Below are positions 12,936 through 54,130 of a stretch of 64,000 bases of DNA, in pieces. The stretch is from Planctomycetota bacterium (GTDB lineage Bacteria; Planctomycetota; SZUA-567; H5-PLA8), in NCBI GenBank assembly GCA_027493525.1, contig JAOSKN010000002.1:1271326-1335325 (forward strand). The letters run 5' to 3'. The notes under the pieces were generated by a model that had not been told where the DNA came from, ran no database searches, and saw only the letters and a list, made by a program, of their open reading frames with translations. Both the position numbers and the translations under genes were made by a program. How positions within the stretch are numbered: position 1 is the stretch's first letter; each line of letters starts with the position of its first letter.

Positions 12936-13335
12936 TCGGTGTGGCTCGTTTGCTGTTTTCATTTTGCTGTTTGTTTGAGATTTGGTTCTTGTCGTTTGCC
13001 GTTTTGAGTCCTGAAGGGTCGAATGAGAATAGCCCAGCGATTCATCGCTGGGAAAATGGTTGGGTTCGCTGGGCGCGGGAAGCATCAAATCAAAAGAACC
13101 AAAACCCAAACAAATTTCAAACGGCAAGAACAAAATTCCAAACAATCGGCGAACAGATCGGCGCTCGAACTCATGCCGCCCCTGCGGGGCTCAAACGAGT
13201 CAAGGGCCGAGTACCAGGGGCTTACGCCCTGGCTATAGCATGGCGGCCCCGCGGGCCTGAATGGCGGTATGGGAATTCATGCCGCGATTGTTAAGTTAAG
13301 GAAATGTGACTGCAACAGCCGGTGACCGGCCCCGG

Positions 13336-27626: not shown

Positions 27627-27685
27627 GCCCCGCGCGGCCCATGGCGATGCTATGCATTCGGCGCGGCGAATTCAAGACGGGCGGG

Positions 27686-27885
27686 GGCGGGATGGTTGCC
27701 GGTTGCCGGTTGTCGGTTGCTGGTTGCTGGTTGCCGGTTGCTGAGGTGCTTTATTTTTTGTTTGGTGGTGCAGGCAACACAAAAAGAGTTCCAAAGCAAC
27801 CGGCAACCGGCAACCGAGAACCGGCAACCGCTGAGCGGCACGGGGCGGCTTCGCTGACCCGTGGCACGGCGGGGTGGGCGGGATG
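27686..27885. repeat. composite GTTGCYG/GAACCGG repeat element with CGGCACGGGGCGGCTTCGCTGACCCGTGGCACGG box
   Basis: Seen in sequence. Confidence 0.8.
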
Positions 27886-28009
27886 CTCGCGGTAACCGGA
27901 GAACGAAAAGACGCGCGGGCGGGACGCCCACGCGAGCCGGCGAGGACGCCGGCGCTACGGCGGCTGCGCCGACCCATGGCACGGCATGTGGGATGCCGGC
28001 GCTACGGGG

Positions 28010-29007
28010 TTACTTCAGGGCGTCGACGCCGGCTTGGGCGACTTCGTGATCCTTGGCGATGGAGTCGCCGCTGACGCCGATGGCTCCGACGAAGCGGCCC
28101 TGGGCGTCGAAGATGGGGAGTCCGCCGGGGAAGGTGATCAGTCCGCCGTTGCTGTGCTCGATGCGGTAAAGCGGGGCCTTGGCTTCCTTGTCGAGGCGCG
28201 AGAGGTCGCCGATGACGCCGGTGGGGAGCTTGAAGCACCAGGAGGTGCGGGCCTTGCGGTGCGCGATGTCGGCGCTGCCGGGCCAGGCGTCGTCCTGCTG
28301 GCCGGCGGCGAGGACGGTGCCTTCGGCGCCCAGGACGTAGATGTGCATCTTGACCTTGGTCTTGGTGACGTCGCTGTCGGTCGCGGCGGCCTTCTTGAGC
28401 GCGGCGTGGAGCGCGACGCCGGCGCCGTAACTGGAGAGGGTGGGGACGGCCTGGGCGGCGTTCTTGCCGAGGTCCTTGGCCTTCTCGACGCCGGCCTGGG
28501 CGACGGCTTCGTCGTTGTCGACGGTGTCGCCGCTGACGCCGATCGAGCCGATGAGCGCGCCGGCCTCGTTGACGATGGGCAGGCCGCCGGGGAAGGTGAT
28601 CAGTTCGCCGTTGCTGTGCTCGATGCCGTACAGCGGGGCGCCGGCCTTCCCGTCGGTGCGGGAGAGTTCGCCGAGGGCGCGGGTGGCGAGATTGAAGCAC
28701 CAGCTCGTGCGGGCCTTCTTCATCGCGATGTCGGCGCTGCCGGGCCACGCGCCGACGGCCTGGGAGCCGGCGAGGAGCGTGCCTTCGCGGCCCAGGACGT
28801 AGACGTGCATCTTGCACTTTTGGCCCTTGTAGACGCCGCTCTCGGTCTTCTCGGCCTTCTTCTGGGCTTCCTCGACGATCTTCTCGGCGGCCTCGCGCGT
28901 GAGCGTGGAGACCTGGGTGAAGAGCGGCGGTTTGGGCTCTTCGCCCGCGCGGAGGGCCGGGGCGCAGAGCAGCAGCAGGGCGGCGAGGGCGGCGAGGCGG
29001 CGGGGCA
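28010..29007 (-). CDS. tandem GlcG/DUF336 (heme-binding HbpS-like) domain protein, secreted
   Basis: The ORF is protein-like from MPRRLAALAALLLLCAPALRA (signal peptide). The GSIGVSGD motif appears twice, in two GlcG-like halves. Confidence 0.65.
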
Positions 29008-29092
29008 TGGGAAGCTCCTTTACCTGTCCGGGTTCGGGTGACAAGGGGGCGGTTGTATAGAGTTGCGCGGAGGGAGGCAACTGAAGTTCCGG

Positions 29093-29262
29093 GTGGCGGT
29101 TGCCGGTTGCCGGTTGCTGGTTGCCGGTTGCTGAGGTGCGTTCTTTTTTGTTGGAGGTGCAGGCAACAAGAAAAGAGTTCCAAAGCAACCGCGAACCGGC
29201 AACCGAGAACCGGGAACCGGCGGTCGGCACGGGGCAGCTTCGCTGACCCGTGGCACGCGTGC
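29093..29262. repeat. composite GTTGCYG/GAACCGG repeat element with conserved box
   Basis: Seen in sequence. Confidence 0.8.
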
Positions 29263-29346
29263 CCCTCCTCGAAGAGGAGGGGAAAGTGCGCACAGCGAAG
29301 TTAACTACCTTAGGCAGAACTGTTTTGCACTCACGCATTGGGAAAC

Positions 29347-29434
29347 TGGAGGAGGACAGAGGACTCGAACCCCACTCCCGAAGGAGCGATCCGTTTTCGA
29401 GACGGTCCCGGCACGCCTGTCCGGTTTATCCTCC
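29347..29434 (-). tRNA. tRNA-Ser(CGA)
   Basis: Manual cloverleaf: GGAGGAT/GTCCTCC acceptor stem, long variable arm, CCA encoded. Confidence 0.8.
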
Positions 29435-29446
29435 CGGTGCGGGCGC

Positions 29447-30022
29447 CTATCCGACGCCCTGCATCCGCTGGCCTAGTACGAACGGCGCCCAACGCGGCTC
29501 GTGATGGACGATTCGCGGCGGGAGCTGTTCGGGGCGCGCGGGCCGGCTGCGCAGCGCCATGCCCGCCGTCTCCGGCGTGCGGTCGCGCTTGCGCCGGTTG
29601 CACGGCACGCAGGCGGCGACGCAGTTGGCCCAGACTGAGCAGCCCCCCTGTGCGCGCGGCAGGACGTGGTCCACGGTCAGCTTGTGCGCCGGCAGATGCG
29701 CGCCGCAGTACTGGCACGTGTAGCCGTCCCGGCGGAGCACGTTGTACCGGGAGAACGCCGGCTTGCGCTCGGGCACGCGGTCGTAGAAGGTCAGCACGAT
29801 CACCTCGGGCGCGAGGAGGTCGCACGTCGCCGTGCGCACCCGCGGCGAATCGGGCGCGCAGGCCACGCGGGTCCAGGACGCGAAATCGTGCGTGGAGTAG
29901 TCCTCCAGCCGCACGGCGCGCGCGTGGCCGTCCACGAGCTTGCAGAGCGCGCGGAGCACCGACGTCACGTCGATCGGCGTCCAGTGCTTGTTGAGGACCA
30001 GCGTCGGCCGTTCCAGTACCAC
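29447..30022 (-). CDS. HNH endonuclease
   Basis: The HNH motif is present: YTCQYCGAHLPAHKLTVDHVLPRAQGG...NCVAACVPCNRRK. Confidence 0.8.
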   Translation of the reverse strand: MVLERPTLVLNKHWTPIDVTSVLRALCKLVDGHARAVRLEDYSTHDFASWTRVACAPDSPRVRTATCDLLAPEVIVLTFYDRVPERKPAFSRYNVLRRDGYTCQYCGAHLPAHKLTVDHVLPRAQGGCSVWANCVAACVPCNRRKRDRTPETAGMALRSRPARPEQLPPRIVHHEPRWAPFVLGQRMQGVG

Positions 30023-30044
30023 CAGCGTGTCCTTTCCGTTGCGT

Positions 30045-30118
30045 TGGCAAGGCGCCGAGGAGTCGAACCCCGCCGGGCGGTTTTGGAGACCGCTCAGGTC
30101 CCCGGACCATCGCGCCTT
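30045..30118 (-). tRNA. tRNA-Trp(CCA)
   Basis: Manual cloverleaf; anticodon loop CTCCAAA. Confidence 0.8.
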
Positions 30119-30138
30119 GTCGTATCCGCCTCTCGAAC

Positions 30139-30213
30139 TGGCTCGCCCGCCGGGAGTCGCACCCGGACCTCGACCTTCGCAAAGTCGTGTGCGGTCTGTT
30201 ACACCACGGGCGG
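30139..30213 (-). tRNA. tRNA-Arg(GCG) candidate, with C1xA72 mismatch
   Basis: A full cloverleaf with anticodon loop TTGCGAA. It is a paralog of the tRNA at 36302..36377. Confidence 0.55.
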
Positions 30214-30225
30214 ATTGGGCTCTCC

Positions 30226-30300
30226 TGGCGCCTCCGCGAGGACTCGAACCCCGATCGGCCGGTTAGAAGCCGGCTGCTCTGTCCCTTGAGCTACGAAGGC
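30226..30300 (-). tRNA. tRNA-Arg(TCT)
   Basis: Manual cloverleaf; anticodon loop CTTCTAA. Confidence 0.8.
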
Positions 30301-30309
30301 GCTGCGGAT

Positions 30310-30383
30310 TGGCGCTCCCGGGAGGATTTACACCCCCAACTCCCGGTTCGAAGCCGGGTATGATTCTGTTTCACCACGGGAGT
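30310..30383 (-). tRNA. tRNA-Arg(TCG) candidate, with A1xC72 mismatch
   Basis: Cloverleaf with anticodon loop CTTCGAA. Confidence 0.6.
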
Positions 30384-30422
30384 CCGAATTTCATGCTCAT
30401 TCTTCAACCTTAATTCCACATG

Positions 30423-30496
30423 ATGGTGTCCCGGGAGGGACTTGCCCCCCCAACTTCCTGACCCTGAATCGGGCGCCTCTGCTTGGGCTACCGGGA
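30423..30496 (-). tRNA. atypical tRNA-like gene (anticodon CAG, short variable arm, T-loop GGCAAGT, 3-bp D stem)
   Basis: The acceptor GTCCCGG/CCGGGAC pairs perfectly and CCA is encoded. The anticodon stem carries a C/A mismatch, and there is no long variable arm, so it is not a canonical tRNA-Leu. Confidence 0.4.
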
Positions 30497-30597
30497 CACA
30501 ACGCCTCGCCTCCATGCGGGGGCCGGAGAGCCGCGCGCCGGACGGCGCGCGGTTCTGCGAACTCCGCGTTCCCGCGCGCATGGCCTCGCGCGCAACA

Positions 30598-30683
30598 TGG
30601 TCGGGGCGGGGAGAGTCGAACTCCCATGGGCGAACCCGCCGGCCTCTCGAACCGGTGCGTATGCCTAGTTCCGCCACGTCCCG
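30598..30683 (-). tRNA. tRNA-Leu(GAG) (type II), with one acceptor mismatch
   Basis: 86 nt, with a long variable arm and A73. The anticodon loop is TCGAGAG. Confidence 0.6.
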
Positions 30684-30690
30684 AATGTCA

Positions 30691-30930
30691 TGGTGTCGCG
30701 GGCAGGACTTGCACCTGCACTAAGTACCGCGCCGCGAAAGTTCCTGACCCACTGCTGGAGCCTTTTGTCCCGGCTCTTCGTTGCGCCTTGGTCTCAGATC
30801 TTCGTCCCGATATGCTCCCTCGGCGCGCCTCGACCCGGGACAAAATGCCCGGCGCATTGGGCCAGCTACTTTCGCGGCGCGGTACCAAGCCGGGTTTGAG
30901 CCGGCCGCCTCTGCATTGGGCTACCGCGAC
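30691..30930 (-). pseudogene. tRNA-like gene (paralog of 30423..30496, anticodon CAA) split by a 162-bp insertion
   Basis: The 3' half at 30691-30723 carries the T-arm, CCGCGAC and CCA. The 5' half at 30886-30930 reads GTCGCGGTAGCCCAATGCAGAGGCGGCCGGCTCAAACCCGGC. The halves are separated by the element at 30724..30885. Confidence 0.5.
30724..30885. mobile_element. 162-bp MITE-like insertion with perfect 18-bp inverted ends GTACCGCGCCGCGAAAGT
   Basis: The inverted ends sit at 30724-30741 and 30868-30885. The core matches the roughly 105-bp unit (TTTTGNCCNGG ... CCGGGACAAAA) seen near 2490, 9780, 9940 and 62050. Confidence 0.65.
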
Positions 30931-30952
30931 ACGATTCAAGTTCCATGCAATG

Positions 30953-31036
30953 AGGAGCGCGGAGGAGTCGAACCCCATGCCTCGCGGCACGCGCGGTCTT
31001 CCAAACCGTCTCGAGCACCGGCTCGAATCACACTCC
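30953..31036 (-). tRNA. tRNA-Ser(GGA) (type II, CCA not encoded)
   Basis: GGAGTGT acceptor stem, anticodon loop TTGGAAG, and a long variable arm. Confidence 0.65.
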
Positions 31037-31065
31037 GGATCAAGTTTTCCTTTCACGTCTCAAAT

Positions 31066-31152
31066 TGGAGGAGGGCGGAGGACTTGAACCTCATGCCCGC
31101 AGGCACGCCCTGTGTAGCAGACAGGCCCGGAAACCCATCCGGGTCACCCTCC
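31066..31152 (-). tRNA. tRNA-Ser(GCT) (type II)
   Basis: 87 nt; anticodon loop CTGCTAC; CCA encoded. Confidence 0.75.
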
Positions 31153-31164
31153 GCACCTAGAAAA

Positions 31165-31253
31165 TGGTCGCCCCGGAGGGAGTCGAACCCTCACGTCCTA
31201 AACGGACACGAGCTTCTGAGGCTCGCGCGTCTTCCAGATTCCGCCACAGGGCG
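31165..31253 (-). tRNA. tRNA-Leu(CAG) (type II)
   Basis: 89 nt; anticodon loop CTCAGAA; A73; CCA encoded. Confidence 0.8.
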
Positions 31254-31346
31254 AAGGAATTGGGACCGCGGAGGCGGCGCGCTCCAGGGGTGGAGCCGCC
31301 TGGGAGAGGGCGCGCACCGCGCTCCGCAATCCGGTTCCTTATTCAG

Positions 31347-32654
31347 CTACAGGAGCTTGACCACACGGTCGGCCAAGCCCTTCTCACCCAACATCACGGT
31401 CAGGTTGGCCTTCTGCGTGACCTTCTCCAGGACCTCCAGCTCGCGCAGGCGCATCAGCGTCGGGTTGTGCTCCAGCACCTTCGCCGTGTTGGCCTGCATG
31501 CGCATGGCCGCGGTCTCCTCGCGGCGCGTGATCAGAGCCGCCTCGGCCGCCTTCTTGGCCTCGGTGACCTTGTTCAACAGGTCCTTCATCTCGCCCGGCA
31601 GGATCACGTCACGGATGCCGAGCGCGATCACTTCCAGGCCGAACGCCGTGGCGCGGTCCTTCAACTGCCCTTCCAGCTCGCGCGCCACTTCGTCCTTGGC
31701 CGCCAGCAGCGCATCGAGATCGCGCGTGCCGATCGCTGCCCGCAGGCTCAACTGCGCCTCGCGGTACAGCGCCTGGCGGTAGTCGTCGGTGACCGTCGCC
31801 GCCTTCACGGCGTCGGCCACGCGGAAGTTCACGACCGCGTTGAGGCGCAGCGTCACCTTGTCGGCGGTCATGATCTCCTGGCCCTGGATGTCCACGACCT
31901 GCTCGCGCAGGTCCACCGTGAACAGCCGCACCTGGCCCACGTCCTTCCAGAACGCGTGCTTTCCGGCGCCCAGCGTGGCCTGGTGCGCGCCGTCCTTGAA
32001 GAAGACGGCGGCGTGGCCCGGCTCGACCGCCAGCCACTCGAGCGCCTCCTGCGCGCCGGCGGCCTTCTGGATGGCCGCCAGTTCGCCGTGCTCGAAGCGT
32101 CCCTTGCCCGCGTCCACGACCTCGACCTTGACGTCGTGGTACTTGGTCGGGATCAGGTGCAGGCCGCGCCCGAGCACGCGCTCGAAGCGCCCGTCGCGCC
32201 AGACGAGCGCGCGCTCGCGGTCCTTCAGGTCCACGGCGCGGGCCTCGCCGTCGAAGGCGCCCGTGGCGAGCACTTCCGCCAGGTCGCGGTGCGCGAAGAC
32301 CGCGGCGCGCAGGTCCACGACGTCCACGCGGACGTCGCGGAAGACCGTCCAGAGGACGTAGCGGCCTGGCTTCAGGACGCGCTCCAGGCGCCCGTCGAGC
32401 CACACGATGCCGCGTTCGTGCGCCTTCAGCTCGACTACGCGGGCGTCCTTGCCCAGGCGGCCGCTCTTCACGATCACGTCCAACTGGGCGTGCTCGAACC
32501 AGGCCTCGCGCACGTTGACCTTCTCGACGCGGACCCGGAAGAACGGGTCGGCAAAGCGGTGCTTGCCCGGCTGCAGCAGCCCCTCGAACTGGCCCTCGCG
32601 GAAGAGCAGGCCGCGCTCGTGCGGCAGGATCTTGAACGTACGCATCAGCAGCAT
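31347..32654 (-). CDS. SPFH/band-7 (stomatin/slipin-like) domain protein
   Basis: The ORF is protein-like from MLLMRTFKILPHERG onward. The SPFH core is recognisable (VVNFRVADAVKAATVTDDYRQAL), followed by a coiled-coil C-terminus. Confidence 0.8.
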   Translation of the reverse strand: MLLMRTFKILPHERGLLFREGQFEGLLQPGKHRFADPFFRVRVEKVNVREAWFEHAQLDVIVKSGRLGKDARVVELKAHERGIVWLDGRLERVLKPGRYVLWTVFRDVRVDVVDLRAAVFAHRDLAEVLATGAFDGEARAVDLKDRERALVWRDGRFERVLGRGLHLIPTKYHDVKVEVVDAGKGRFEHGELAAIQKAAGAQEALEWLAVEPGHAAVFFKDGAHQATLGAGKHAFWKDVGQVRLFTVDLREQVVDIQGQEIMTADKVTLRLNAVVNFRVADAVKAATVTDDYRQALYREAQLSLRAAIGTRDLDALLAAKDEVARELEGQLKDRATAFGLEVIALGIRDVILPGEMKDLLNKVTEAKKAAEAALITRREETAAMRMQANTAKVLEHNPTLMRLRELEVLEKVTQKANLTVMLGEKGLADRVVKLL

Positions 32655-33050
32655 GCTGCACCTCGCCTTCTCGGGTGGCGGCCACAGGGCCGCCTTCAAC
32701 CCGCTGCCCTCTTGGTTCGTGCCCCGGTCGGGCCAGGGCAGAGCTTGTTCGCGACGCCGGCGGCGAAACGACCTTTGGGAGGCGGACCGCCGGTCCGCCA
32801 CACCTTCGGCACGGAGCACCGCTTGAGCCCCGCGCTACTCCCGGATTCGAGCCCCGGCTTGCGCGCGCGAACCCTACGGGCTTCACGCGCGCGCCCCGGA
32901 ACCGTCTCCCGGTTTGGCGCAGGACGGTATCCGCGCGCTTCAGGGCGCCGTCGCGTGCTGCCGAATTCCGAGCTGGAACGAGCCTCGAAATCCGGCGGGC
33001 CGAGCGCGACGACCGCCCCCCTCGGGCCTCACGGTTACGCTTTTGCAAGC

Positions 33051-33122
33051 GTGTTGGCGCAGGATTCGAACCTGCAACTCACGGATTAAAAATCCGCTGC
33101 TCTTCCCTTGAGCTAGCCATGG
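33051..33122 (-). tRNA. tRNA-Lys(TTT)-like; acceptor 5' strand poorly paired (possible pseudogene)
   Basis: The D-arm (TAGCTCAAGGGAAGAGC), anticodon loop (TTTTTAA) and T-arm (GCAGGTTCGAATCCTGC) are canonical, but only 4 bp of the acceptor stem pair. Confidence 0.5.
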
Positions 33123-33205
33123 TCGGATGGCGGGAGTCGAACCCGCGTTCCCCTTGCGAGGAACCAGTTCCAAGCTGGCGCGCCTTCCCCGGCGCGTCAT
33201 CCGTG
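33120..33205 (-). tRNA. atypical tRNA-like gene (Pro-TGG-like anticodon hairpin CTTGGAA, extended variable region)
   Basis: A T-arm (GCGGGTTCGACTCCCGC) and a CCA end are present. The acceptor has one mismatch and the structure is irregular. Confidence 0.35.
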
Positions 33206-33214
33206 GTGCGCGGC

Positions 33215-33287
33215 AAGCCGGGCGAGATTCGAACTCGCGTCCTCCGGGGCAACCGCCCCGGCGCTCTGCCACTGAGCTACCCGCCTC
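33215..33287 (-). tRNA. tRNA-like gene, identity undetermined (6-nt anticodon loop, acceptor mismatch)
   Basis: The D-arm (TAGCTCAGTGGCAGAGC) and T-arm (GCGAGTTCGAATCTCGC) are canonical. The anticodon hairpin CCGGGG CGGTTG CCCCGG is irregular. Confidence 0.4.
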
Positions 33288-33452
33288 CGCGCGCGACTGA
33301 CATTTCGCCTTCGTCAGATCCCATGTCCGGAACACGCGCGGGCGATCACGGTGTGAGCCCGCACGCGCCGCTGGCCCGGCGTCGGTCAGTATTCGGTTTT
33401 GTCATCGAACCACCCGGTCTCCTTGTTTTTCCCGGTCTGCGATACTGCCTCA

Positions 33453-33526
33453 TGGCGCCCGCTGGAGGAGTCGAGCCTCCGTCTCCACCGCGTCGAGGTG
33501 GCGCTCTCCCGTTGAGCTAAGCGGGC
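33453..33526 (-). tRNA. tRNA-Val(GAC)
   Basis: Perfect acceptor GCCCGCT/AGCGGGC; anticodon loop TCGACGC; CCA encoded. Confidence 0.75.
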
Positions 33527-33531
33527 CGAGC

Positions 33532-33605
33532 TGGTAGCCGCTGAAGGAGTCGAACCTTCGTCTCCAGCGTGTGAAGCTGGCGCCCTGCCCTTAGGCGAAG
33601 CGGCT
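33532..33605 (-). tRNA. tRNA-Val(CAC)
   Basis: Acceptor AGCCGCT/AGCGGCT; anticodon loop TTCACAC; CCA encoded. Confidence 0.75.
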
Positions 33606-33606
33606 A

Positions 33607-33692
33607 TGGGGGCCTCGACGGGATTTGAACCCGCACCACGCGAGCGAGCGGCCTTTGGGAAACGCGCTTCCCAGTCACGGCGGTTTGCGGCC
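33607..33692 (-). tRNA. tRNA-like element (T-arm + acceptor + CCA), probable pseudogene
   Basis: The 3' end reads GCGGGTTCAAATCCCGT CGAGGCC C CCA. The 5' partner GGCCGCA leaves 2 mismatches, and no clean anticodon arm is visible. Confidence 0.3.
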
Positions 33693-33845
33693 AGGTCCCG
33701 TACGGTTACCCGTACGGGCGTGACACGGTGCATCCTCAACCCTTGCCGCGCCCCACACCCGATCAGGCCCCACGGGCCTTCGCGATCGGTAGCAGGTCTC
33801 GCGTGCCCTGTTACGGGGCCGGTTCTACGTTTTCCGGCAGGCTGC

Positions 33846-34015
33846 CTTGTGAGCGCGTCCTAAAACGCCTCGCGATCGTCTTGGGGCGGCGGGCCGCGCG
33901 ATGCTTCGTTGGCCTGCTCGCCGTATGCTCGTTCCGATACGGCTTGCGCGGCCGCCTCGCCTCGCTTGCCCGGCGCTCCCAAGCCGCCTCGCGATCCGAT
34001 TTCAGGACGCACTCA
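33846..34015. repeat. about 165-bp dispersed repeat (copy 2 of 2)
   Basis: Matches 23826..23995. Confidence 0.7.
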
Positions 34016-34046
34016 TTGCCTCACGAGGCCCAGCGTTATTCGGTTT

Positions 34047-34122
34047 TGGTAGCGAGCCGTGGAATCGGACCACGCTTGCAGGCTTATGAGACCCGCCAGA
34101 CCCCCAGGCCTTGCCACTCGCT
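34047..34122 (-). tRNA. tRNA-Met(CAT)-like (elongator Met or Ile-lysidine type)
   Basis: Acceptor AGCGAGT/GCTCGCT; anticodon hairpin CGGGT CTCATAA GCCTG; T-loop TCCGATT; CCA encoded. Confidence 0.55.
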
Positions 34123-34181
34123 ATCGAACGCTTTTCCTCCTTTGCTCGGTCCTCAGTCCTCGGTGCTCCGTCCTGCCGTAA

Positions 34182-34265
34182 TGGTGGGGTCGTAAGGAAT
34201 CGAACCTCCCAGCCTCGCGGCGCAGGGGTTACGGCCCTGCCCTGATCCCACTCAGCAGCGACCCC
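34182..34265 (-). tRNA. tRNA-Tyr(GTA) (type II)
   Basis: Perfect acceptor GGGGTCG/CGACCCC; anticodon loop CCGTAAC; long variable arm; CCA encoded. Confidence 0.75.
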
Positions 34266-34352
34266 GATCCAAATACGGAATGTCGAATTCGGAATGCGGA
34301 ATAATGAAAGAATCCGCAGGCCATTTTCGTTTCATTCCGGAGCCTTAATTCA

Positions 34353-34430
34353 TGGTCGGGATGGAGGGATTCGAACCCCCGATCTCCTGGCCCCCAGCCA
34401 GGCGCGCTGGCCATGCTGCGCTACATCCCG
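34353..34430 (-). tRNA. tRNA-Pro(GGG)
   Basis: Acceptor CGGGATG/CATCCCG; anticodon loop CTGGGGG; CCA encoded. Confidence 0.8.
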
Positions 34431-34450
34431 ATGCGGCCCTCCTTCGAGTT

Positions 34451-34528
34451 TGGTCGGGGTGGCAGGATTCGAACCTGCGACCTCTGCAATCCGAATGCAG
34501 CGCGCTCGCCAAACTGCGCTACACCCCG
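34451..34528 (-). tRNA. tRNA-Pro(CGG)
   Basis: Acceptor CGGGGTG/CACCCCG; anticodon loop TTCGGAT; CCA encoded. Confidence 0.8.
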
Positions 34529-34631
34529 GGGAACGGCTGTGATCTGTAATCTGTAATCTGAGGCTCCACCTTTCATTCTGGTACCGACTCGTACCTTATT
34601 CACTGTTCACAGATCACAGACCACAGATCTC

Positions 34632-34707
34632 TTGGCGGGGCCCCCGGGAATCGAACCCGGTTCTCCTGCGCTTCAGGCAGGCGCAATGACCACACCTGCT
34701 CAAGCCC
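34632..34707 (-). tRNA. tRNA-Phe(GAA)
   Basis: Anticodon loop CTGAAGC; CCA encoded. Confidence 0.75.
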
Positions 34708-34709
34708 CA

Positions 34710-34786
34710 CTGGCGCCCGCGGCCGGAGTCGCACCGGCTTACTCCACCGTGACAAGGTGGCGGCTCCACTGTTTCGCCTTCGCGGG
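34710..34786 (-). tRNA. tRNA-Asp(GTC)
   Basis: Acceptor GCCCGCG/CGCGGGC; anticodon loop TTGTCAC; CCA encoded. Confidence 0.8.
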
Positions 34787-34803
34787 CCCTGCTCCTTTGC
34801 GTA

Positions 34804-34877
34804 TGGAGGCCGCGGAGGGCTTCGCACCCCCGTGGACGGCTTTGCAGGCCGCCGCCTTGCTCCTCGGCCACGCGGCC
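34804..34877 (-). tRNA. tRNA-Cys(GCA)
   Basis: Acceptor GGCCGCG/CGCGGCC; anticodon loop CTGCAAA; CCA encoded. Confidence 0.8.
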
Positions 34878-34892
34878 GAATCTCCGCCGGCA

Positions 34893-34967
34893 TGGGGTGA
34901 CTTGCGGGAGTTGAACCCGCTCTGCGAGCCTCACAAGCTCGCGTGCGCCCGGCACACTCAAGCCACC
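34893..34967 (-). tRNA. tRNA-His(GTG) with encoded G-1
   Basis: Anticodon loop TTGTGAG. An extra 5' G pairs with C73, which is a His identity element. Confidence 0.8.
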
Positions 34968-34977
34968 ATCCAAGTCC

Positions 34978-35051
34978 TGGTCGGACGGGGAGGAATCGAA
35001 CCTCCGCCGGCTGCTCATCAGACAGCCGTGCTCCCGTTACACCACCGTCCG
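34978..35051 (-). tRNA. tRNA-Ile(GAT)
   Basis: Acceptor CGGACGG/CCGTCCG; anticodon loop CTGATGA; CCA encoded. Confidence 0.8.
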
Positions 35052-35056
35052 CCCGT

Positions 35057-35611
35057 TCACTGCTTCTCGGCGCCCTGCGCCAGCCACTCTTCGCGCAGCA
35101 GGCCCATGACCAGCGTGTCCTGGTACCGGCCTTCGAAGTAGGCGTTCTGGCGCAGCACGCCTTCCTTGATAAAGCCGGCCTTCTCGTAGGCCCGGATCCC
35201 GCCGCGATTGCAGGCGAAGACGTGCAGGTAGATGCGGTTCAGGTTCAGCGTTTCGAACCCGTATCCGACGATCAACCGGGTCGCTTCGGTCCCGTAGCCT
35301 TTGTTCCATTCCTCTTTCGCACCGATGTAGATGCCGAACTCGGCGCGGCGGTCCTTTTCGAGCCCCGGGCGGAGCCCGGTTCCGCCGAGGAAACGGTCGT
35401 TCTCCTTCAAGGCGATCGCGAGGACGGTCTGGCGCTCGTCGACCAGGACCTTGTCCAGCCACTGCTCTTCGGCTTCCTTCGTCAGCGGCCGATGCCAGTT
35501 CAGTGTTCGCGCGACTTCGCCGTCGTTGAGGTACGTCAGGATCTGCGGCACGTCCTCCTTGCTCAGTGGCCGCAGGTAGATCCGCTCGCCGATCAGGAAT
35601 GCGTTGTGCAT
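35057..35611 (-). CDS. GNAT family N-acetyltransferase (RimJ/RimL-like)
   Basis: Begins MHNAFLIGERIYLRPLSKEDV. An acetyl-CoA-binding motif is present (RNAYFEGRYQDTLVMGLL). The gene is embedded in the tRNA array. Confidence 0.8.
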   Translation of the reverse strand: MHNAFLIGERIYLRPLSKEDVPQILTYLNDGEVARTLNWHRPLTKEAEEQWLDKVLVDERQTVLAIALKENDRFLGGTGLRPGLEKDRRAEFGIYIGAKEEWNKGYGTEATRLIVGYGFETLNLNRIYLHVFACNRGGIRAYEKAGFIKEGVLRQNAYFEGRYQDTLVMGLLREEWLAQGAEKQ

Positions 35612-35628
35612 GGCCCACTTTCCTTTCC

Positions 35629-35702
35629 TGGTTGGCCCGCGAGGATTCGAACCTCGGCCTGCGGAGCCAAAGTCCGCCGTCCTGCCTCTAGACGACGGGC
35701 CA
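35629..35702 (-). tRNA. tRNA-Gln(TTG)
   Basis: U1:A72; anticodon loop CTTTGGC; CCA encoded. Confidence 0.8.
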
Positions 35703-35709
35703 TTCGATC

Positions 35710-35785
35710 TGGCGTCCCCGGCGGGATTCGAACCCGCGTCGCCAGGCTGAGAACCTGGCATCCTCAACCGCTAGACGACAGGGAC
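35710..35785 (-). tRNA. tRNA-Glu(CTC)
   Basis: Anticodon loop TTCTCAG; CCA encoded. Confidence 0.8.
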
Positions 35786-35795
35786 ACTGCTGCAT

Positions 35796-35870
35796 TGGAA
35801 CGGCCGGCGGGAATCGAACCCGCCCTTCGACGTTGGAAGCGTCGCGTGCGCCCGCTCACACTTCGACCGC
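35796..35870 (-). tRNA. tRNA-Gly(TCC)
   Basis: Anticodon loop CTTCCAA; CCA encoded. Confidence 0.7.
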
Positions 35871-35910
35871 CTGCGCTTTGATCCTCCCAAGAACCTCGCA
35901 CCTGCCGTCT

Positions 35911-35984
35911 TGGCTGCGGGGCAAGGATTCGAACCTCGCTTTCCTGGTTCAGAGCCAGGCGTCCTGCCGCTAGACGACCCCGCA
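35911..35984 (-). tRNA. tRNA-Gln(CTG)
   Basis: U1:A72; anticodon loop CTCTGAA; CCA encoded. Confidence 0.8.
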
Positions 35985-35988
35985 ACGT

Positions 35989-36064
35989 TGGTGCGTCCGG
36001 TGGGGCTCGAACCCACACGCACCCGGGTAAGAACCGGGCTCTCTGCCACTCGAGTTCCAGACGC
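35989..36064 (-). tRNA. tRNA-Lys(CTT)
   Basis: Anticodon loop TTCTTAC; CCA encoded. Confidence 0.8.
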
Positions 36065-36074
36065 GACCTGTACG

Positions 36075-36147
36075 TGCCTCCGGGAGGATTCGAACCTCCA
36101 CCCCTCGGCTTAAAAGGCCGGTATGCTGCCGTTGACACCACGGAGGC
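36075..36147 (-). tRNA. tRNA-Lys(TTT) (CCA not encoded)
   Basis: Perfect acceptor GCCTCCG/CGGAGGC; anticodon loop CTTTTAA. Confidence 0.75.
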
Positions 36148-36202
36148 GCACGTTTGATTGCTTTTCGTTTCACGCTCGCCTCCAAGTCCCGCTCCTCCCG
36201 TT

Positions 36203-36276
36203 TGGCAGCCCCACGGGGATTTGAACCCCGACCTCCGGATTGAAACTCCGGCATCCTCCCCTTAGACGATGGAGCC
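36203..36276 (-). tRNA. tRNA-Glu(TTC)
   Basis: Anticodon loop GTTTCAA; CCA encoded. Confidence 0.75.
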
Positions 36277-36301
36277 GCTTTGCGTTTCATGCTCCCTGCA
36301 T

Positions 36302-36377
36302 TGGTGGAGCGGCCGGGACTCGCACCCGGAACTCGACCGTGCGAAAGTCGTGTGTTGCTGGTTAGCACCACCGCCCC
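36302..36377 (-). tRNA. tRNA-Ala(CGC) with G3:U70
   Basis: Acceptor GGGGCGG/CCGCTCC carries the G3:U70 Ala identity pair. Anticodon loop TTCGCAC. Confidence 0.7.
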
Positions 36378-36396
36378 ACGCTGCGTACGCCTCCTT

Positions 36397-36470
36397 TGGC
36401 TCCGGCGGGAGGATTCGAACCTCCGTCTCCTGATTAACAGTCAGGGATGTTGCCCTTACACCACACCGAA
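36397..36470 (-). tRNA. tRNA-Asn(GTT)
   Basis: Anticodon loop CTGTTAA; CCA encoded. Confidence 0.8.
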
Positions 36471-36476
36471 CCGCGT

Positions 36477-36550
36477 TGGTGGAGCGTGCGGGACTTGAAC
36501 CCGCATCCCGAGGCTGCCGGCCTCGCATCCTTCCGTTGAACGAACGCCCC
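36477..36550 (-). tRNA. tRNA-Ala(GGC) with G3:U70
   Basis: Acceptor GGGGCGT/ACGCTCC; anticodon loop CCGGCAG. Confidence 0.75.
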
Positions 36551-36567
36551 ACGGGTACTTCACAAGC

Positions 36568-36638
36568 TGGAGCCGCAGGCAGGAGTCGAACCCGCCAGGC
36601 CTCTTTACGAAAGAGGCGCGTGCCCGGCACACCGCGGC
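36568..36638 (-). tRNA. tRNA-Thr(CGT)
   Basis: Anticodon loop TTCGTAA; short D arm; CCA encoded. Confidence 0.7.
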
Positions 36639-36649
36639 AGAGCACGAAC

Positions 36650-36723
36650 TGGAGCCGCCCGAGGGAATCGACCCCCCCTGCTCGCCACCAGGGAGCCGTG
36701 CGAACCATCGGCGCCGGAGCGGC
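36650..36723 (-). tRNA. tRNA-Thr(GGT)
   Basis: Anticodon loop CTGGTGG; CCA encoded. Confidence 0.65.
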
Positions 36724-36733
36724 CCGTCGAAAC

Positions 36734-36806
36734 TGGAGCGGGGGCGGGAATCGAACCCGCGTCTCGAGCTCGGCATGCTCGCGCTCTCCCGTTGAGCTAC
36801 ACCCGC
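36734..36806 (-). tRNA. tRNA-Gly(GCC)
   Basis: D-arm TAGCTCAACGGGAGAGC; anticodon loop ATGCCGA; CCA encoded. Confidence 0.75.
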
Positions 36807-37454
36807 TTTGCGTACGTTCCTCCGCGGCGAGACAACAAGGCCCCGGCGAAGAACCGTGGGTTCTTCGAAAATCTGCCTTGTGGTTTTGCGGCGGGCGCGC
36901 GACGCCTCATCCGAAAATTAAGTCTTAGAATCCGACCCAATTCCCTCGCGCGCCCGTCGTTCGCGGCCTGCGCCGCCGGCACGTCCTCAACGCAAAACAA
37001 AAAAGCCTTCCCGGGTCGTCCCCAGGAAGGCTCTGGCCTTGCGGCAGTTAGAAGCTCTTCCTAGGGTGTGGAGCCTCCGTTGAAGCTCCGCTCGCCGTTG
37101 GCGTACGGCATATCGCCATGGGCGAGGCTCGATTCCGTTGAGCCGCCTTTGGCGCATGGGCCGCCCGCGACGCGCCACGCTTGGGGCGCGTATGCGGCGG
37201 ATAGGAAGAAGGTTCGCTGCGTCATCGTACGTTCCGTCCCTTTCAAACGACTTGCCTCAACCAACCGCACAAAGCCGGATTCGTCAAGAGGCGCCGGGAC
37301 ATATTTCGAACAAAAATGCGTTCAAAATGCTGCCAATCGAGGCGCGCGATCCGGGAGGGCGGGGACGGCACTGGCAGCCCGGGGGCGGCGCGCTAGGCTT
37401 GTAACATCCTTGGAACGGCTTGTTACCAGGCGCCACGACGCAAGGAACGCCCGC

Positions 37455-38288
37455 ATGCCCGCCGCCGCGTTGACCGACACCTCGAAACTCTGCGTCCATA
37501 CGATCACGACCAAGCCGCTGAGCCTGGACGAAGCGCTGGAGGCCTATCCACGCGCGGGGGTACGGGGGATCACGGTCTGGCGGCAGGCCTTGGAAGGCCG
37601 GAATCCGGCGGCCTCGGGCAAGCGCATTCGCGAGGCGGGGCTTTCGATCGTGAGCCTCTGCCGCGGCGGCTTTTTTCCCGCGCGCGAAGCCTCGAGGCGG
37701 CAGGCCGCGATCGACGAGAATCGGCGGATCGTGGACGAAGCTGCGGCGCTGGGCGCGCCGCTGGTCGTGCTGGTCTGCGGCGCCGTGCCGGGTCAGCCGC
37801 TTGGCGAAAGCCGCGCCCAGATCCGGGACGGGATCGCGGCGGTCGCCGACCATGCCAGGGCATGCGGGGTGAAGCTGGCCGTCGAACCGCTGCATCCGAT
37901 GTACGCCGACGACCGCTCCGCCATCAACACGCTGCGCCAGGCCAACGACCTGTGCGAGGCCCTGGACCATCCGGCGGTCGGCGTGGCGGCGGACGTGTAC
38001 CATTTATGGTGGGATCCCGAACTCGAGGCGCAGATCGCGCGCTGCGGGCGCGCGGGCCGGCTCTGGGCCTTCCATATCTGCGACTGGAAGACTCCGACCG
38101 AAGACCTGCTCAACGACCGCGGCCTGATGGGCGAGGGCTGCATCGACCTGCGCGGGATCCGCGGCTGGGTCGAGGCGGCGGGCTTCGGCGGCTTCAACGA
38201 AGTGGAGGTCTTTTCCAACCGGCGCTGGAAGCTGGACCAGCGGGCGTACCTCGAGGAGATCCGGAAGGCGTACCTGGAACGCGCGTGA
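37455..38288 (+). CDS. sugar phosphate isomerase/epimerase (xylose isomerase-like TIM barrel)
   Basis: Protein-like from MPAAALTDTSKLCVHTITT onward. The pattern of conserved His/Glu/Asp residues fits the AP-endonuclease-2 / xylose-isomerase-like TIM-barrel family. Confidence 0.8.
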   Translation: MPAAALTDTSKLCVHTITTKPLSLDEALEAYPRAGVRGITVWRQALEGRNPAASGKRIREAGLSIVSLCRGGFFPAREASRRQAAIDENRRIVDEAAALGAPLVVLVCGAVPGQPLGESRAQIRDGIAAVADHARACGVKLAVEPLHPMYADDRSAINTLRQANDLCEALDHPAVGVAADVYHLWWDPELEAQIARCGRAGRLWAFHICDWKTPTEDLLNDRGLMGEGCIDLRGIRGWVEAAGFGGFNEVEVFSNRRWKLDQRAYLEEIRKAYLERA

Positions 38289-54043: not shown

Positions 54044-54130
54044 GCCCAGGTGGCGGAATTGGCAGACGCGCTGGCTTCAGGTGCCAGTGGCCGCAAGGCC
54101 GTGGAGGTTCAACTCCTCTCCTGGGCACCA
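54044..54130 (+). tRNA. tRNA-Leu(CAG) (type II)
   Basis: Acceptor GCCCAGG/CCTGGGC; anticodon loop TTCAGGT; long variable arm; A73; CCA encoded. Confidence 0.8.

Follow-up and report, generated by a model that had tools for sequence, protein, structure and literature searches.

An IshB-like HNH nuclease gene nested in a long tRNA array of a planctomycete, and its relatives beside tRNA arrays elsewhere

Within a 64,000-nucleotide stretch of the chromosome of a Planctomycetota bacterium (assembly GCA_027493525.1, contig JAOSKN010000002.1, positions 1,271,326 to 1,335,325), hereafter called the window, a long tRNA array carries an intact gene for a small two-domain nuclease, which combines a PLMP-like N-terminal domain with an HNH domain of the IscB/Cas9 type. 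We regard the identity and genomic context of this gene as firmly established. It adds a further case to an already known association with tRNA arrays; its position in the array is not accidental, and the link is general. Long tRNA arrays spread horizontally as cargo, and their origin and function (a backup under translational stress, or anti-defence) are debated; HNH genes are their most constant protein-coding companion. In all four contexts that were sampled, namely Planctomycetota chromosomes, a cyanobacterial plasmid, a mycobacterial plasmid and viral contigs, this companion belongs to a single protein family. Taken by itself, the gene in the window is what one would expect of such an array; the main points of note are its IshB-like architecture and the strict arrangement of a tRNA gene followed by the open reading frame (ORF). 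As to function, we tentatively prefer the reading that the protein may be a homing-like DNA nickase or endonuclease, resident in the array, which would maintain, reshuffle and spread such arrays.

An intact two-domain nuclease gene between two tRNA genes

The features of the locus are as follows, all on the minus strand.

29347..29434, minus: tRNA-Ser(cga) (ARAGORN), the final gene of the array, 12 nt 3' of the HNH stop codon
29447..30022, minus: HNH nuclease gene, 191 aa, GTG start, TAG stop (ORF list, Pfam, homologs)
29555..29749, minus: HNH nuclease domain (beta-beta-alpha-Me, with Zn-finger), IscB/Cas9d-like, about aa 92-156
29759..30022, minus: N-terminal PLMP-like domain, about aa 1-88, the closest structures being the PLMP domains of IsrB and IscB
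30023..30044, minus: 22-nt spacer between tRNA-Trp and the start codon, reading ACGCAACGGAAAGGACACGCTG
30045..30118, minus: tRNA-Trp(cca) (ARAGORN), immediately 5' of the HNH gene, atypical, with a short D-loop

Read along the coding strand, the genes and gaps therefore follow each other as tRNA-Trp, 22 nt, the HNH gene, 12 nt and tRNA-Ser, just as the first-pass annotation of this DNA had placed the gene (ORF list and ARAGORN), and the spacer contains a Shine-Dalgarno-like GGAAAGGA at 30030-30037 (minus strand), 7 nt 5' of the GTG. Both direct neighbours are tRNA genes, so that no methyltransferase, intein or intron is adjacent, as had also been described. The array is dense, with 31 same-strand tRNAs in 7.5 kb and the HNH gene near its 3' end; we found neither a promoter-like site within it nor a terminator-like hairpin flanking the HNH gene. 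With Infernal, the flanking Trp and Ser tRNAs and several others are not among the RF00005 matches listed at the gathering score, and the tRNA-Trp beside the HNH gene scored 36.6 bits against the tRNA-Sec model. The spacing strongly suggests that the HNH gene is co-transcribed with the tRNAs.

Profile searches agree with the initial view of a free-standing, intact HNH nuclease gene: Pfam HNH_5 matches aa 103-156 with E=5.9e-13 (49 bits, cut-off 27.5), and Pfam HNH the same segment with E=3.6e-12 (46.7 bits, cut-off 21.4). In an alignment of 26 homologs, residues C103, C106, D118, H119, N133, C138, C141 and N142 are invariant; since these include the catalytic D-H/Asn and the four Zn-binding cysteines, both sites are intact, which shows that the gene is no fragment. 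The AF2 model (pLDDT 89.5) has two domains only. For the HNH domain, the nearest NCBIfam models are Cas9d (9.3e-14) and IscB (6.2e-13), and the profile search of PDB sequences returned TbaIscB (2.7e-14) and the nicking enzyme 4h9d of Geobacter (1.2e-12), its matches being confined to the HNH part with nothing on the N-terminal domain. Alignment of the family profile to the PLMP sequence of DtIsrB with hhalign likewise gave no match, the PLMP likeness being structural only.

The protein belongs to a large family. An identical sequence is already recorded as 'HNH endonuclease, Planctomycetota bacterium', from a metagenome-assembled genome (MAG), and the search retrieved 744 homologs, mostly of about 195 aa, with query coverage of 85-99% and identity of about 50%; at E<=1e-30 the family counts 1,275 cluster representatives among 1.84 billion. 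A decaying pseudogene, or a chance ORF in GC-rich DNA, might come to mind, given that the window has a GC content of 67% and long spurious ORFs in all frames; full-length conservation, the invariant catalytic residues, the confident fold and a GTG-GTA start common to the gene and its nearest relative make this extremely improbable, and the idea of a degenerate fragment was rejected on the homologs, the residues and the AF2 fold.

To judge from published descriptions, the architecture appears to be that named IshB. IshB proteins are described as PLMP plus HNH proteins of about 180 aa without RuvC (PMC10734217, PMC11610941). The window protein seems to have this two-domain build in common with them, and has a similar size (191 aa) without RuvC, whereas it differs in lacking an IS200/IS605 context, its neighbours being tRNA genes, and an omega-RNA-like Rfam match. 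No IS200/IS605 element lies at the HNH locus, where the tRNAs stand at 22 and 12 nt, although TnpA was not searched window-wide. The build is related to that of IscB, the ancestor of Cas9, and prompts one to ask whether PLMP-HNH proteins act with RNA. Two other characterized enzymes share the HNH part alone. GmeHNH (4h9d), a Mn-dependent nicking HNH enzyme of Geobacter metallireducens, has 112 aa and no PLMP-like N-terminal domain, and we know of no tRNA context for it. The McrA of Escherichia coli shares the beta-beta-alpha-Me motif (6ghc, E=0.0017, aa 86-144), while its modified-cytosine-binding N-terminal domain is absent from the window protein, which has the PLMP-like domain instead; the description 'McrA-like', which some annotation sources also convey with the label COG1403 (McrA), is hence apt for the HNH motif only.

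The family beside tRNA arrays of chromosomes, plasmids and viruses

The association itself has been reported before. Cyanobacterial L-arrays have beside them a conserved gene, all8564, for an HNH 'homing endonuclease' (Santamaria-Gomez 2021, PMC8421152), and in Anabaena this gene is co-induced with the trn array under translational stress by chloramphenicol; the same authors suggest a possible part for it in the dissemination of the array, comparable to that of SegB in T4, and report L-arrays in Planctomycetes too (PMC8421152). HNH endonucleases are the most widespread coding sequences in Mycobacterium tRNA arrays (Morgado and Vicente 2018, PMC5966550) and occur in phage tRNA clusters (Morgado and Vicente, PMC6409571), a homing role having been proposed for array HNH genes (PMC8421152, PMC5966550), and an earlier paper had pointed out degenerate tRNA clusters in Planctomycetes (PMC4807772). 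The literature that we searched nowhere states that cross-phylum array-linked HNH genes form one family of IshB-like build, nor that the Planctomycetota HNH gene has a fixed slot in the array, nor that the usual placement is a tRNA followed by HNH with a spacer bearing a Shine-Dalgarno motif; the IshB literature searched does not mention close linkage to tRNA genes.

To define linkage, we required at least three same-strand tRNAs within 3 kb, in a genome sample of 80 species-representative loci encoding relatives and in a viral sample of 80 IMG/VR contigs. Array-linked were 12 of the 80 genome loci (8 of the 51 with full flanks) and 25 of the 80 viral contigs. The viral cases, together with the cultured phages Atuin and Mx1, which show the same tRNA-then-HNH layout as the array loci, supply homologs from viral tRNA clusters, which the first-pass annotation had proposed to look for; in the Gordonia phage Forza, the HNH gene lies near terminase. 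Every one of the tRNAs near array-linked genes is on the HNH strand (463/463), and the start codon typically follows the tRNA 3' end by 12-35 nt, with GGAG or AGGAG before the start. Arrays of the Pirellulales type have a conserved order, in which the HNH gene is nearly always placed after tRNA-His(gtg), at a distance of about 31-40 bp (31-104 bp over array loci), and ahead of tRNA-Trp. By lineage, the slots comprise His|Trp, Trp|Ser, after Leu(caa), Ala|Glu and upstream of the array. Position is conserved among related genomes, another matter raised in the first-pass annotation, with Trp|Ser in the nearest relative and His|Trp in Pirellulales-type arrays.

Two plasmids connect the window gene with the systems of the literature. 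On plasmid delta of Nostoc PCC 7120, tblastn found an HNH gene with 36.5% identity over 93% query coverage (E=4e-23); its coding sequence is WP_010999558, it lies 200 bp upstream of a trn array of at least 24 tRNAs on the same strand, and it is presumably all8564, an assignment made by position only. Full-length homology and same-strand adjacency to an array are what this gene and that of the window have in common, whereas the former is plasmid-borne, about 200 bp upstream of its array and equipped with its own mapped promoter, and the latter is chromosomal and nested between two tRNAs near the array 3' end, where there is no room for a promoter. The HNH protein of the Mycolicibacterium plasmid pCBMA213_1 has 36% identity over 83% of the query, and its gene is nested, co-oriented, between tRNA-Ala and tRNA-Glu of a 29-tRNA array. 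It resembles the window gene in homology, nesting between tRNAs and orientation, and differs in belonging to the array HNH genes of Actinomycetota plasmids and phages, with another slot and arrays of another order.

In the lineage of the window, the nearest relative (protein P0002, locus L001) is 64% identical and occupies the same slot, Trp-HNH-Ser(cga), in a 27-tRNA array. This array is collinear with that of the window from the flanking GFO_IDH and AP_endonuc_2 genes, the products of which are 79-86% identical between the two, to the tRNA-Ser 3' end, where homology stops. Such collinearity at one chromosomal site implies that the array and its HNH gene have been vertically inherited. The gene is present in both relatives found for the lineage (L001 and L089), and a metagenome scan with a lineage-specific tRNA-Trp pattern returned one contig, with the HNH gene in place. 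The GC content at third codon positions is 0.93, equal to that of host genes.

A proposed homing-like activity and its alternatives

How might a nuclease come to accompany tRNA genes recurrently? Under the homing-like reading, the HNH gene would be transcribed within the precursor of the tRNA array, and processing of the tRNA-Trp at 22 nt on the 5' side and of the tRNA-Ser at 12 nt on the 3' side would free a short-leader mRNA having its own Shine-Dalgarno-like motif. The nuclease would then cleave the DNA of tRNA genes, or DNA close to them, and set off repair by recombination, which would copy its gene together with neighbouring tRNA genes, so that arrays could be reshuffled, duplicated and spread. 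The mechanism is modelled by analogy on SegB, from the tRNA cluster of phage T4. SegB is likewise encoded by a free-standing nuclease gene within a tRNA cluster, there a phage gene, and it is a GIY-YIG enzyme, hence unrelated in fold to the HNH protein. According to PMC8421152, where the work is cited, SegB is the experimentally supported model of a gene that spreads itself and its flanking tRNA genes. If the analogy is right, the HNH family would offer a concrete candidate enzyme for the building and movement of arrays.

Several observations count for this reading. The family recurs with arrays on chromosomes, on plasmids and on viral contigs. One Pirellulales MAG (SMAG_U14055) contains two array copies, L009 and L010, about 89% identical around the HNH gene, which could represent a duplication or two strains binned together; one copy has been cut by internal deletions to 8 tRNAs and still retains the HNH gene. 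The idea of a homing-type mobile nuclease, put forward in the first-pass annotation, gains some further support from the variety of tRNA slots and from a junction devoid of the gene. Scanning viral contigs with the tRNA-Trp pattern of the Pirellulales type, we obtained a single locus, L173, which lacks HNH and lies on a phage-like IMG/VR contig of 4.5 kb, with the array His-Trp-Thr-Arg-Arg-Arg-Cys, which is 75-80% identical to HNH-bearing arrays. Its His|Trp gap (80-240) has a 161-bp spacer where the gene would be, harbouring a long and almost perfect hairpin (DNA fold -41.5 kcal/mol, z -7.6), and the array segment is followed by genes for the large and small terminase subunits and for a DNA methyltransferase.

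Other observations weigh against the homing-like reading. L173 is the only HNH-less junction found and, its identity being 75-80% and not near-complete, loss of the gene and original absence are indistinguishable there. In the window lineage, comparison of the sequences suggests an old, ameliorated and vertically inherited copy, host-like in composition and fixed in the same slot and site as in L001, which does not look like a recent invader. There was no array near 68 of the 80 genome loci with relatives. A rough neighbour-joining tree, indicative only since it was built on mechanically extended ORFs, intersperses array-linked and non-array genes within the Pirellulales clade. In MAGs of the Myxococcota/Desulfobacterota type, the gene sits in a conserved block away from arrays, with selA directly 5' and a ParA/MinD-like ATPase gene directly 3', and with an rluA-type pseudouridine synthase gene, rho and prfA within 5 kb (L054, L058, L066, L068, L070, L072, L073); such a neighbourhood is typical of a housekeeping gene and not of a selfish one. 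Among non-array relatives no universal conserved protein neighbour emerged, the synteny being lineage-specific only. We found in the literature no biochemistry, cleavage activity or target for any family member. Moreover, the HNH domain of IscB normally works inside an RNA-guided complex.

The last point leads to the rival in which the protein is directed at RNA. Its PLMP-like domain would bind tRNA, pre-tRNA or another structured RNA, and its HNH domain would process or cleave RNA, or else cleave DNA in an RNA-dependent manner, as part of an array-borne module for translational stress or tRNA quality control. PLMP does contact RNA in IsrB, Ro60/TROVE genes follow HNH at three loci (L019, L021, L036), EF-Tu, SPFH and GNAT genes lie within arrays, and non-array relatives stand beside selA, rluA-type, prfA and rho genes. 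From the literature one may add that all8564 is co-induced with rtcB as well as with the trn operon under chloramphenicol stress (PMC8421152), that IshB is discussed as a possibly RNA-compatible ancestor (PMC13284715) and that the HNH protein PtuB of Retron-Eco7 is reported to be part of a system degrading tRNA-Tyr (PMC12673091). This neighbourhood evidence is circumstantial and heterogeneous, however, the nearest characterized HNH domains (IscB, Cas9, GmeHNH) are DNA cutters, and no RNA partner was detected, the Rfam matches over 28500-38000 at E<=0.1 being of tRNA type apart from a weak YrlA overlapping tRNAs; we consider a role directed at RNA rather unlikely. Equally doubtful is a housekeeping chromosomal nuclease, for instance in repair or recombination, that would hitch-hike in the tRNA operon for expression in the manner of tuf. 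It would fit with most relatives being away from tRNAs, with the conserved housekeeping neighbourhood in some phyla, with the host-like composition and vertical inheritance in the window lineage and with the similar embedding of an EF-Tu gene in one array; yet the repeated, co-oriented linkage to arrays over replicons and phyla, usually right after a tRNA, is beyond chance, and the retention of HNH in the deletion-reduced array also speaks against it.

The first-pass annotation had offered a defence nuclease as an alternative, namely an enzyme like McrA, Septu or type IV restriction systems, carried alongside spare tRNAs that would buffer against anticodon nucleases. PADLOC does give weak matches to the PtuB, REase and mREase_IV models, and tRNA arrays are discussed as anti-defence cargo (PMC12803027). 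Those matches, however, span only the HNH core of about 60 aa (26-87 of 227 in the PtuB model), no PtuA ATPase or methyltransferase gene is adjacent, the neighbours being tRNA genes, and the protein has no domain for reading DNA modification, its N-terminal domain being PLMP-like and not a 5-methylcytosine reader, with the McrA match (E=0.0017) limited to the motif. A McrA-like restriction enzyme or a Septu/PtuB system was rejected for such motif-only matches and the missing partner gene, and defence in general appears very unlikely.

A more speculative idea, which we regard as improbable, would turn the arrangement of the genes into a functional clue. The omega-RNA of IscB and IsrB loci, which makes contact with the PLMP domain, is found right next to the ORF on its 5' side. 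In dozens of independent array loci this very position is taken by a tRNA gene, 12-35 nt upstream. By analogy, the array-linked PLMP-HNH protein could be an OMEGA-like ribonucleoprotein nuclease, the RNA partner of which would be an array tRNA or a tRNA-derived RNA. On this view, the tRNA would act as a scaffold or guide, or else tRNA itself or R-loops at tRNA genes would be the target of the nuclease, and tRNA arrays with IshB would constitute a previously unrecognized RNA-associated nuclease system. An omega-RNA or HEARO-like RNA near the HNH gene was considered separately and rejected, having no Rfam match in 28500-38000 at E<=0.1.

Other contents of the array and its surroundings

The remaining features of the array are these.

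29347..36806, minus: long tRNA array, with at least 31 ARAGORN tRNAs, 5 Infernal-only elements and 3 embedded same-strand coding sequences
31347..32819, minus: Band_7/SPFH gene inside the array (Pfam Band_7 9.6e-38), a mechanical ORF
35057..35611, minus: gene for a GNAT acetyltransferase of Acetyltransf_3 type, inside the array (Pfam 5.3e-26)
37002..37034, minus: terminator-like hairpin with a 14-bp stem and a T run, just 5' of the first tRNA, conserved with L001

The array is a mixture of canonical and atypical tRNAs. The tRNA-like elements recognized by Infernal only lie, on the minus strand, at 30427-30497, 30953-31037, 31069-31153, 33055-33119 and 34714-34787, and for the tRNA at 33212-33286 ARAGORN reported a 2-base 'anticodon'. 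Judging from its position, the hairpin at 37002..37034, a strong one, closes the upstream gene and would isolate the array as a separate transcription unit.

The Band_7/SPFH gene probably has its true start downstream of 32819. Relatives with 50-53% identity are found 1.5-2.5 kb 3' of HNH in five Pirellulales-type arrays (L006, L015, L031, L033, which is fragmentary, and L038), and the L001 array is without this gene; Band_7/SPFH looks like a second recurring protein-coding companion of these arrays. The GNAT gene has an ortholog, 66% identical, in the same array position of L001 (7461-8012), and the Acetyltransf_3 type includes acetylases of ribosomal proteins. In other arrays, a Ro60-like gene (vWA_Ro60 plus TROVE) is situated 0.6-1.4 kb after HNH at L019 (11312-13015), L021 and L036, and an EF-Tu gene is inside the L006 array; Ro60/TROVE and EF-Tu are genes of RNA quality control and translation that travel with arrays.

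Elsewhere in the window, a stand-alone tRNA-Leu(cag) at 54044-54130 (plus strand) duplicates the array tRNA-Leu(cag) at 31165-31253 (minus strand), with different acceptor stems and Infernal scores of 51.7 bits for the stand-alone copy vs 50.3 bits for that of the array, which suggests at least some redundancy between the array and dispersed tRNA genes. An HbpS-like gene situated just downstream of the array is flanked by two copies of a palindromic repeat, at about 27650-27900 and about 29090-29235, made of GGTTGCCGGTTGC-type units and their complement and resembling repetitive extragenic palindromic elements or miniature inverted-repeat transposable elements. Finally, an Rfam match to the Acido-Lenti-1 RNA at 13007-13052 (minus strand) scores 49.6 bits, over the gathering score.
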